Of a DNA stretch of 64,000 nt, positions 16,810 through 20,973 are shown piece by piece. How positions within the stretch are numbered: position 1 is the stretch's first letter; every line of letters begins with the position of its first letter. The DNA lies in the sequence record OL631257.1. One strand, 5' to 3'. The translations under genes were made by a program, and so were the position numbers. Below the pieces are notes generated by a model. That model ran no database searches, had not been told where the DNA came from, and saw only the letters and a program-made list of their open reading frames with translations. The stretch comes from Escherichia phage ECCR664.

Positions 16810-17494
16810 TACCAGCCTTCCATAGGGAATTCCAGATAAACTTGGGCATTGACACGAATTTCATTGGTAATCTTTTTAACTCGGTCTGTATTACGAGATA
16901 CACGTCCGAACCAACGCCATCCATTACTAATTGCACGAGAACCAGTGTGCCATGTTTGCCAATCGAACTGAAGAAGAGTACGGTCTGGAGCTTCCCATTT
17001 CTCTAGTTCACCTTTTTCAATTTTTCGAGGACTTCTTTGTGCCATTGGCGATAGATAAGTTCGCCATCAGGAATCTGGCTGAACTCTGCAGTTCCTGTTG
17101 CAAAATGAGTAGGACACACATCAGCGTTAACAAGGCCAAGAATATGTTCAGACAAATAGCGAGGATTGTCATAGTCGGGTTGTCCTGCAGTAATAAAGTG
17201 TTGACCAACCGGAATATCCGGGCGTGGTACATCGTCATGGTGATAACCTGGGATAGCAGGGTACCAACCAGGCATCAGCATGTGGACTCGTGAATCAAAT
17301 ACAACCTGGTCGGTGTTCCAATCATCTGGCAAGTTCATAATGAAGCTGCGAGTAATAGGACCGCCGTTATTATAAGCAAATTCTAAACTACAGTTGAAGA
17401 ACATAGGCTCGTTCTTGATTTTATCATTAGAAATACCGCCGGCAAAACCACCTACTGCACGAGCTTGACTATTAAACACTTTAGAACTATTCAT
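16809..17494 (-). CDS. hypothetical protein (~228 aa), frameshift near 17030
   Basis: ORFs 17003..17494 and 16809..17045 overlap in different frames. Confidence 0.4.
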
Positions 17495-18138: not shown

Positions 18139-19094
18139 TTATTTGAAAGGTTTTACCATATGGAAATTTTGTTTGAAACGTTTTACGTAATCGTCATGTC
18201 CTAAGCTTTGGTACATACTTACTACTTTGCTGTAGTTTTCCCAGGCGTATTCACGGAACCAACCGGAGGTGATGCTTGTGCAGACTTTTTCTAATGCCAT
18301 CATGAAACTGGCTTCAGGGTTAATTTCAAAGTTATTAGGAATCTGAGAACGTTCTAATGCTAGTACACATGATTCTTCGTATACACCGGCCAATTTGACC
18401 ATTTCTGGTAATGATTCGAACTTCTCGCGTGAGGTCATGACTTCAGAACCATCTTTCATGTAAAACGTATAAGCAGGGCGGTCTGTTAGTGCAATGGCTT
18501 CGTGAATAGTATCATGGTCATATGTATAGATGTCATCTTTAAAGAATGCGCTTTTAGAAGTGTCAAGAACCGGGTGAGCATAGTTCAAGGTTTCTTTCTG
18601 GCGTTTCAGCATAATTTCAGTAAGTTCATCGTTCAGTGTAACACCTTTACCACGAAGATACTGAATATGGTTCATAGTCTTTAAAAGAATGGATTATTTT
18701 TCTTGAAACGATGGGACATCTTAATTGCAAGACACATCTCAGGAGTTGCCCAGTAAAACCCGTTCAAACGGTCTTTAGTCAAATTTTTCTTGGCATATTT
18801 TAAAAGGTCATAAGAAGACGTGAAATCTTCAGGAGTGAGTTCACCGACTAATTCACGGACATTAGTGATTGCCGGAACAATATATGCTTCAAAATGAGTT
18901 TCGCGTCCATTATGGAAGCATTTGAAAACTTGGACATCAGGGTTATCTTGGTGGACATATACACCCATCATTTGATTTTTGAATGCATTCCAAGAACCTT
19001 GGTCTGCAATAAAGTCCCAGTCACTATTTTTGATAGCGTTAGAATCAATAAGTCCGTGATAGTGAAGTGCACGAGAACCAATAACTAACATCAT
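18139..19094 (-). CDS. hypothetical protein (~315 aa), frameshift near 18680
   Basis: ORFs 18681..19094 and 18139..18675 adjacent in different frames. Confidence 0.4.
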
Positions 19095-19375: not shown

Positions 19376-19416
19376 TGATAGGACTACTATAACATAGCCC
19401 TATCTTGTTGTAAACT
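19376..19416 (-). promoter_or_regulatory. early promoter motif with GATAGGACTA-type inverted repeat
   Basis: GTTTAC at 19410-19415 (minus). Confidence 0.5.
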
Positions 19417-19419
19417 GTT

Positions 19420-19617
19420 TTAGCAAGAATAACTAGATGATACCCAGCCTTGAACAGTAATACTATTATTTGATACCGAGATTGCGTTCTGGAGATTCAG
19501 ACCTGCGTTATCTTCAATCCATAATGTAACTTCTTCGCGTTCTTCTGTTGCAATTTGGAACAGGTTTTCCAGGGCAGCTACTGCCGTACGTACAGCACAA
19601 TCTAATTCACGAGACAT
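19420..19617 (-). CDS. small protein, paralog family member (C-terminal …GWVSSSYSC)
   Basis: shares C-terminal G-W-V-S-S-S-x-x-C with the two neighbours. Confidence 0.45.
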   Translation of the reverse strand: MSRELDCAVRTAVAALENLFQIATEEREEVTLWIEDNAGLNLQNAISVSNNSITVQGWVSSSYSC

Positions 19618-19622
19618 ATGAT

Positions 19623-19898
19623 TTCCTTAGCAAGTGTGAGAAGATGCAACCCAACCACCAGTTTCGAGGCTCAGGTTATAGTCGTATTGGTAAACGTCGG
19701 CCCATTCAGCATAGCCGTTTTTGTACAACGTTCAAGATCGGCTTTAAGATGTCCTGGCGAATGATAGGTTCCACCCATACCATAAGCTGGATACAAGTCG
19801 AATGTTGTGTTTTGTTTATCAGCAATTTCTTTGGCAGCCTCAATAGCTGCATAGATTTTTGCTACGGCTTCAGCCAGTTCGGTTTGTTCTTTAGACAT
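19623..19898 (-). CDS. small protein, paralog family member (frameshifted; C-terminus …GGWVASSHTC recovered in shifted frame)
   Basis: ORF 19671..19898 plus shifted continuation. Confidence 0.4.
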
Positions 19899-19907
19899 AA
19901 TGATTCC

Positions 19908-20213
19908 TTAGCACAACGCAGAAGACGAAACCCAAGCACCTTCAGTAATAACGTAACCATTACCTTCACGCTTAACATCGCCACCATTATTTTCAATTTC
20001 ATTTTTCATCCATTGGGATACGATTTCACCCTTAGGATAATAAGTACGACCGCTACCATAATCACCTACAGAAAATGATACGGCATATTGGTCTGCGATC
20101 TTTGTTGCTTCTTCTTCGATACGTTCAGCTTGATTCAGAAGTTTATAAATTGCATCTGAAGCGGATTTGGCATCATTAAACTCTGGTACTTTAATTTCAA
20201 TAATCTTACTCAT
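19908..20213 (-). CDS. small protein, paralog family member (C-terminal …GAWVSSSALC)
   Basis: ORF 101 aa. Confidence 0.45.
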   Translation of the reverse strand: MSKIIEIKVPEFNDAKSASDAIYKLLNQAERIEEEATKIADQYAVSFSVGDYGSGRTYYPKGEIVSQWMKNEIENNGGDVKREGNGYVITEGAWVSSSALC

Positions 20214-20569
20214 TTTCTACATTCCTTAATAAAGTTTTCTATTGTTTCATTTTCACGTCTAGCTAGGAGTTCATTATAACTAATCATTTGAGAAGCGTAA
20301 ACCTTTTTATTTTTCTTGTTATGGTTTATAAAATCGTAGTAAAAATAGACTACAGTACAAAAGGATGCGATGGATGCAAAGGCTTGGGTGTACCGTAAGT
20401 CCTGCCATTGGTCTGTGAATCCACCGGTGTTCCCTATAAATCCTAACACAACCCCGTCAATAAGAAATCCAACTAATCCAAAGGCAAATCCCATGCCAAT
20501 ACTCATAATAAAAATTAGAATGTTCTCACCAAGAGACGGCCATACGGTTAAGAGTTGAGGCTTTTGCAT
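20210..20569 (-). CDS. membrane protein
   Basis: hydrophobic helices ILIFIMSIGMGFAFGLVGFLIDGVVLGFIG. Confidence 0.45.
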   Translation of the reverse strand: MQKPQLLTVWPSLGENILIFIMSIGMGFAFGLVGFLIDGVVLGFIGNTGGFTDQWQDLRYTQAFASIASFCTVVYFYYDFINHNKKNKKVYASQMISYNELLARRENETIENFIKECRK

Positions 20570-20973
20570 CTTATTTCCTTAACGAATTCCATAGCTTCTT
20601 CATATTCATACTTTTTAACAGCTTCGTCATACTGAGCTTGGGCTTTTGCGCACTGAACTTTCCACTCACGAACTCGAGCTCTGTGATGACGTCCTTGGTA
20701 CCAATATCCCACCCAGTTAATAGGCATTAATAAAAACGGTACAATAAGTGGTGCGACGAACATTAATGAAAATGCTGCATCAGACGATATAACTTCACTA
20801 GAATCTAAAACAGCTCCTATAATCATAAAGATTAAAAATGCTAAAGCCAAAATAGGGCCAAATAGTACTTCGTTTGGGATTAATTTACGTTTGTATTCGT
20901 ATGCCCAGGGCTTACTCGGCATGTATAGGGTTGGCTTTGACATATTCTCTACATTCCATAATAAATTGCTCAA
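20548..20973 (-). CDS. membrane protein
   Basis: hydrophobic helices LFGPILALAFLIFMIIGAV and FSLMFVAPLIVPFLLMPI. Confidence 0.45.
   Translation of the reverse strand: MSNLLWNVENMSKPTLYMPSKPWAYEYKRKLIPNEVLFGPILALAFLIFMIIGAVLDSSEVISSDAAFSLMFVAPLIVPFLLMPINWVGYWYQGRHHRARVREWKVQCAKAQAQYDEAVKKYEYEEAMEFVKEIRCKSLNS

Follow-up and report, generated by a model that had tools for sequence, protein, structure and literature searches.

Three small genes between the e.3 homologue and a hairpin

The DNA analysed here (the window, 64,000 nucleotides) belongs to an RB69-like T-even phage (Mosigvirus), and the region of interest is 97% identical to RB69, PhAPEC2 and other Mosigvirus genomes. It carries three small consecutive open reading frames on the minus strand, found with their Cys-ending tails where a preliminary reading made from the letters alone (the sequence-only reading) had placed them, and encoding acidic proteins (pI 4.1-4.8). 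ORF1 (19908..20213, 101 aa, pI 4.7) is intact, ends in ...EGAWVSSSALC and is the homologue of RB69ORF138c and RB69ORF139c together; ORF2 (19627..19898), 90 aa long once a single A is restored in an A-run near 19718, ends in ...GGWVASSHTC and corresponds to RB69ORF137c; ORF3 (19420..19617, 65 aa, pI 4.1), again intact, ends in ...QGWVSSSYSC and is the homologue of RB69ORF136c. The shared MSK(I/E) start and similar size first ascribed to the three hold only in part, as ORF3 begins MSR and the lengths fall from 101 through 90 to 65 residues.

The genes are closely spaced. The start codon of ORF1 and the stop codon of the e.3 homologue overlap in ATGA, nine nucleotides separate the ORF1 stop from the ORF2 start (TAAGGAATCATTATG) and nine the ORF2 stop from the ORF3 start, and the stop codons are embedded in TAAGGA, a Shine-Dalgarno-like sequence just 5' of the next ATG. 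The RB69 counterparts sit between e.3 and e.2, among ORFs without T4 names. A 176-aa plus-strand ORF (19548..20078) lies antisense to ORF1 and ORF2; it is unsupported and probably spurious, because the minus-strand genes are conserved. The e.3 and e.4 homologues, which precede the trio (20210..20569 and 20548..20973, minus strand), resemble two-TM membrane-protein paralogues, both ending in a FIKECRK-like motif that recurs in VR20 and PM2. The ‘sulfurtransferase’ label seen close by in phages JK36 and F31 was given to the e.4 membrane-protein homologue, not to any of the three genes, and is probably wrong.

Candidate transcription signals flank the three genes. A promoter-like TTTACG-17-TATAAT (20273..20301, minus strand), recognised by consensus match only, lies within the e.3 homologue upstream of the trio, and the equivalent site is annotated in SA79RD as a T4-type middle promoter. 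The ORF3 stop codon is followed at once by a stable 11-bp hairpin (19377..19404, minus strand; -16 kcal/mol, z -4.5) without a clear U-tract; SA79RD carries a terminator annotation at the equivalent site, and a promoter scan placed a promoter-like TTTACA-17-TATAGT overlapping the hairpin. The role of the hairpin may be to end or stabilise transcripts at the boundary of the trio and the genes that follow.

The window itself has ORF2 in two pieces, 19671..19898 (75 aa) and 19627..19728 (33 aa, with the ...GGWVASSHTC end). Its relatives RB69 and SA79RD carry ACAAAAAACGG where the window carries ACAAAAACGG, i.e. a run of six A has become five, and in both relatives ORF2 is a single in-frame gene of 90 aa that reads ...ETGGWVASSHTC, which bears out the frame correction made in the sequence-only reading and the C-terminus that it reconstructed. 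The loss is one of many. Compared with RB69, single-base contractions of A/T homopolymers of 5-6 nt are present at 17021, 17550, 18683, 19266, 19718, 21113, 22536 and 23313, and break four neighbouring genes: a DUF7277-DUF7275 gene discussed below (18683), the ORF135c homologue (19266), ORF2 (19718) and the e.5 homologue (21113). Runs of six number 14 in the 64 kb of the window against 12 in 8 kb of RB69, a roughly sevenfold depletion, and contraction probably extends throughout the window, beyond the sites listed. Given that contraction is systematic and runs of six are depleted, the ORF2 break almost certainly stems from sequencing and not from biology, and any frameshift or pseudogene in the window is suspect. 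A programmed ribosomal frameshift was rejected for the same reason, and because the relatives have the extra A and one in-frame ORF.

An old family defined by its C-terminal tail

A six-frame translation of the window has exactly three matches to the pattern W[VILM][SA]SS..C-stop, where composition predicts 7.4e-4 and 300 shuffled sequences gave none. The tail is thus far above chance in the window, and it marks a large phage family. Searches with PHROGs HMMs place ORF1 and ORF2 in phrog_899 (E 1.8e-22 and 3.9e-14) and ORF3 in phrog_4882 (E 1.6e-36); ORF1 is 98% identical to a 48-member protein cluster (P0001), ORF3 orthologues are present in 251 phage records, and intact orthologues of the trio genes number in the hundreds. 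The tail proteins match no family in Pfam or NCBIfam and have no significant match among PDB sequences; hits of ORF1 to Peptidase_S78_2 (E 0.0036) and E217_Gp32 (E 0.0092) were below cut-offs, seen in just one of 53 family members, and were discarded. RB69ORF135c, considered as a fourth paralogue, ends in ...DIACREI and does not belong.

A profile search of 1.84 billion representatives returned 613 clusters (counted at 50% identity) at E<=1e-3, of which 79 reached E<=1e-10, nearly all of them 75-120 aa long and aligned up to the last residue. Cys is the final residue in 216 of 231 collected proteins, and among these 216, which have the tail pattern and end in Cys, the Trp at -7 and the two Ser at -4 and -3 are each conserved in 213; their median pI is 4.4. 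The W-x-x-S-S spacing is unchanged in a short form of the tail, W-x-x-S-S-C, in internal second copies and in mini-proteins of 45 aa, and some members have an extra internal WLNSSC. This tail is the sole element common to subfamilies that otherwise cannot be aligned. The family consists of widespread phage proteins that are small (about 45-150 aa), acidic and cytoplasmic, encoded in tightly packed arrays of one to five old, diverged paralogues (median gap between tail genes 9 nt) that are probably translationally coupled. Unusual architectures were also seen: in one protein of 134 aa a second unit comes after an internal ...GWAASSQSC, another has tandem WESSSEG linker repeats (clusters P0055 and P0079), and mini-proteins of 45-49 aa, composed of a helix and ...WEGSSC (L007, 9138-9287; L012, 704-841), match an insert in longer members.

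How the members of the trio are related depends on the pair. ORF1 and ORF2 are homologous across their C-terminal halves (BLASTP E 2e-4 over 57 residues) and have a common core, F-x-F...(D/A)YG(S/M)G(R/G)TY(Y/H)...G-x-W-V-(S/A)-S-S-x-x-C, so that for this pair, both in phrog_899, the similarity extends well beyond the tail. ORF3 has in common with them only an N-terminal helix, acidity, the last 14-16 residues or so and a conserved position; hhalign matched it to the family over 14 C-terminal columns (E 1.7e-5, probability 79%), and its AF2 model found no matches in BFVD and retrieved no ORF1-type structure, leaving its sequence similarity confined to the tail.

The copies are not young. In Gaprivervirus VR20 and relatives five consecutive tail genes end in ...GAWVSSSAMC, ...GGWVSSSAEC, ...NSWVSSSYEC, ...GFWYNSSMSC and ...KIWYPSSC, and phage PM2 has three. 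Orthologues in the window and VR20 are 55-60% identical (the neighbouring DUF7277-DUF7275 protein 72%), whereas paralogues within VR20 are at most about 30% identical and alignable mostly in the tail only. The order of the trio orthologues is kept across genera, and ORF3 hardly varies among them in its first 21 residues. Since orthologues from different genera are so much closer than paralogues from one genome, the paralogues are old; by these comparisons the trio consists of anciently separated paralogues, each conserved in its own right, and is no array in the course of recent duplication or diversification. A paralogous family defined by a Cys-ending tail, as the sequence-only reading had it, is therefore real, and its picture of tandem duplication in a diversifying family finds no support.

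Linkage to a DUF7277-DUF7275 gene

On the same strand, 325 nt downstream of ORF3, lies the gene for a 318-aa protein (18139..19094), the RB69ORF134c homologue, with Pfam matches to DUF7277 (E 1.4e-27) and DUF7275 (E 4.8e-79); the contraction at 18683 splits it in the window into 18681..19094 and 18139..18675. The connection between this gene and the tail family emerged in both directions. When diverse tail loci were retrieved by a YGMGGTYYP DNA pattern and all their ORFs clustered, the only neighbour common to different lineages was the RB69ORF134c homologue of about 300 aa, and wherever a tail locus had enough downstream DNA (10 of 10 IMG/VR contigs, VR20 and PM2) the DUF7275 gene was downstream on the same strand. 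In the reverse test, anchored on the DUF7277-DUF7275 gene in 80 IMG/VR loci, 71 had one to five same-strand tail ORFs in the 3 kb upstream (none in 9 loci, one in 14, two in 24, three in 11, four in 5 and five in 17), with only five tail-like ORFs elsewhere in the 80, and BLAST clustering of the neighbours gave the tail family as the only one widely shared across phage lineages. The 71 linked loci span T4-like phages, Phapecoctavirus, Otagovirus and jumbo phages; in Otagovirus REC and Phapecoctavirus BI-EHEC two to three tail genes are directly upstream of the gene. Of the nine loci without a tail ORF, two have no DNA upstream, and in one the tail is a variant, ...WESSESSEC.

The DUF7277-DUF7275 protein was found in 733 phage records, from phages of Escherichia, Acinetobacter, Aeromonas, Pseudomonas, Vibrio, Xanthomonas and Stenotrophomonas, with a shorter form in Gordonia and Streptomyces phages. 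Among the MAGs of 185,579 species it occurs on only four contigs, three of them with tail ORFs, and on this account the pairing is essentially restricted to phages. Together the tail family and the DUF7277-DUF7275 protein look like an undescribed two-part phage module. A literature search returned nothing on the trio genes, the tail motif or DUF7277/DUF7275, and the catalogue entries for phrog_899, phrog_4882, phrog_2141 (into which the partner falls), DUF7277 and DUF7275 mention neither a function nor the tail motif, and do not connect the small proteins with DUF7275. Two observations count against such a module, namely the few loci that have the DUF7277-DUF7275 gene and no detectable tail gene, and the small unrelated gene (RB69ORF135c homologue) that, with the hairpin, separates ORF3 from the partner gene in the window.

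The partner (about 250-330 aa) comprises DUF7277 at residues 2-101 and DUF7275 at residues 120-305. Its invariant residues are G6, S7, D25, D27, K125, H128, H194, D195, H198, E240, E241, E248 and R249, the first four in the context hh(I/V)GS-x(15-20)-D-x-D-hh, an N-terminus that we take to be the classic signature of a Pol-beta-type nucleotidyltransferase; four GenBank records label the protein a nucleotidyltransferase or putative nucleotidyltransferase. From this signature, the invariant His/Asp/Glu set and the label given by some annotators, we infer that the partner is a nucleotidyltransferase-like enzyme. Profile searches against Pfam, NCBIfam, PADLOC and the sequences of PDB chains gave no match beyond DUF7277 and DUF7275 apart from scattered weak ones in NCBIfam and PADLOC, and hhalign against an approximate, unverified AadA sequence was negative. 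In short forms of the enzyme the part expected to hold a third catalytic acid is missing.

The short enzymes offer a comparison, as those of actinophages and KVP40 have no tail genes. A conserved KVCTSITSGWFREYAWE surface of the enzyme comprises C272, W279, R281, W285 and E286; of these C272, R281, W285 and E286, together with an R165...H174-P175 block, are invariant in tail-associated enzymes and absent from the short actinophage and KVP40 enzymes. Being present only in enzymes with tail partners, they are candidates for tail recognition. The short DUF7275 proteins (248-263 aa) of Streptomyces phage Wakanda, Gordonia phage ClubL and Vibrio phage KVP40 adjoin a different acidic protein of about 97 aa. 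These neighbours (L101, 3594-3890; L102, 3600-3887; L103, 2360-2653) were considered as tail-family members and rejected, as they align with each other and are unrelated to the tail proteins.

Explanations for the invariant tail

The tail is best explained as an element bound by the enzyme, because an invariant Trp, Ser-Ser and Cys is carried on diverging bodies and is linked almost obligately to one gene. The reading that we tentatively prefer, conscious that it may well be wrong, is that the tail proteins and the DUF7277-DUF7275 enzyme form a functional module, in which the enzyme would recognise and dock onto the Trp, the two Ser and the terminal Cys, and would then probably modify the tail covalently. 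Through its variable body each paralogue would have its own role or target, the copies serving as alternative substrates or adaptors, and the purpose could be host takeover or counter-defence in early or middle infection. The sequence-only reading had raised a modification or an anchoring signal. The first is now the most attractive, and gains support from the tight linkage of the family to an enzyme-like gene. Anchoring found no support: the proteins are acidic and by inspection hydrophilic, without a hydrophobic N-terminal stretch or lipobox, and their Cys is the last residue, not at -4 as in a CaaX box.

A more specific version, which we regard as possible but doubtful, takes the tail to be the substrate of a previously unknown modification by the DUF7277-DUF7275 enzyme, with the paralogues as phage ‘carrier’ or activated effector proteins in a new enzyme-substrate system found across large phages; candidate modifications would be nucleotidylylation of Ser, a crosslink derived from Ser, Cys or Trp, or a protein-derived cofactor. 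Pairs of a nucleotidyltransferase and a small-protein substrate are known from GlnD-PII (uridylylation) and MntA-HepT (AMPylation), and the phage pair resembles them in its hG[GS]...DxD-type N-terminus and His/Asp-rich helical domain, encoded beside small partners. However, it has no detectable homology to GlnD, MNT, PII or HEPN, a C-terminal Ser-Ser/Cys tail takes the place of a loop Tyr as candidate acceptor, and there are one to five paralogous partners per enzyme, all phage-encoded.

The tail proteins also recall RiPP precursors with a C-terminal Cys, such as the epidermin type in which S...C-COOH becomes AviCys, and peptides that serve as C-terminal scaffolds or give cofactors (MftA, pearlins). 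Like these they are small tandem products with a conserved Ser/Cys C-terminus ending in Cys and an adjacent enzyme gene, but their conservation is reversed, with an invariant tail and a variable body, and the body is a folded domain of 65-100 aa, predicted confidently in the AF2 model of ORF1. A lanthipeptide or AviCys-type precursor was accordingly rejected, as the conserved neighbour has no LanB, LanM, LanC, LanD, rSAM or YcaO domain and the tail is the most conserved part. Small size, a functional exact C-terminus and pairing with an activating enzyme are likewise features of ThiS/MoaD and other ubiquitin-like carriers; the tail proteins lack the beta-grasp fold, the C-terminal Gly-Gly and the E1-like partner that mark these carriers, and this assignment was rejected too.

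The main rival holds that the tail is conserved for structure, as the last beta-strand and capping turn in the core of a small alpha/beta domain, and that the proteins are unmodified, stoichiometric regulators, inhibitors or adaptors of DUF7275 or of host proteins, acting non-covalently. We consider it somewhat unlikely, yet it is the alternative with most in its favour. In the AF2 model of ORF1 (pLDDT 91.4) the tail lies within the fold, W94-S96 forming a strand and S97-L100 a helical turn, both at a pLDDT of about 90, so that conservation of the tail could be structural and not that of a free docking peptide; Trp is typical of protein cores, and the gene linkage fits a regulator-enzyme pair equally well. 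Set against this, the same terminal W-x-x-S-S-(x-x)-C occurs on very different bodies, including ORF3, the 45-aa mini-proteins and proteins with a second internal copy, a near-invariant Ser-Ser and terminal Cys would be unusual in a purely structural strand, and in the ORF3 model (pLDDT 81) the tail is of low confidence, with a pLDDT below 50.

For either an enzyme-bound or a structural tail, three anonymous ORFs become a defined two-component module that is open to experiment. Hundreds of cultured phages have it, among them therapeutic-type coliphages and phages of Acinetobacter, Pseudomonas and Aeromonas, and so do jumbo phages; conserved genes without an assigned function number in the hundreds in large phages. 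Modification of the tail would imply a new chemistry of protein modification and phage effectors of a new class, and an unmodified tail would still represent a widespread regulator-enzyme pair that is catalogued only as unrelated DUFs and PHROGs.

That the proteins are instead independent small effectors of host takeover or anti-defence, adjacent to DUF7275 merely by the inherited synteny of a variable accessory region, is improbable. Their location in the e.2-e.3 accessory region, among the unnamed RB69 ORFs, would suit such a role, as would their being small and acidic like many phage inhibitors, but the adjacency holds in unrelated jumbo phages, Otagovirus, Phapecoctavirus and T4-like phages of Aeromonas and Acinetobacter, which have no other neighbour in common, and linkage this broad makes synteny alone an unlikely cause. 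Finally, a chance motif on mis-called ORFs or an array of pseudogenes, with the ORF2 break as real inactivation or a programmed frameshift, can hardly be correct, since the out-of-frame ORF2 of the window, the split of ORF1 in RB69 itself and a 75-aa truncated form annotated in phage mar005P1 are outweighed by three motif copies against about 7e-4 expected, by strong PHROG matches and hundreds of intact orthologues, by the in-frame ORF2 of relatives and by a homopolymer contraction that breaks four adjacent genes. The RB69 split arises from an extra A (AY303349, about 4017 of the retrieved stretch, corresponding to 20010 in the window) that divides ORF1 into ORF138c and ORF139c; unlike RB69, the window and most relatives have the intact 101-aa gene.
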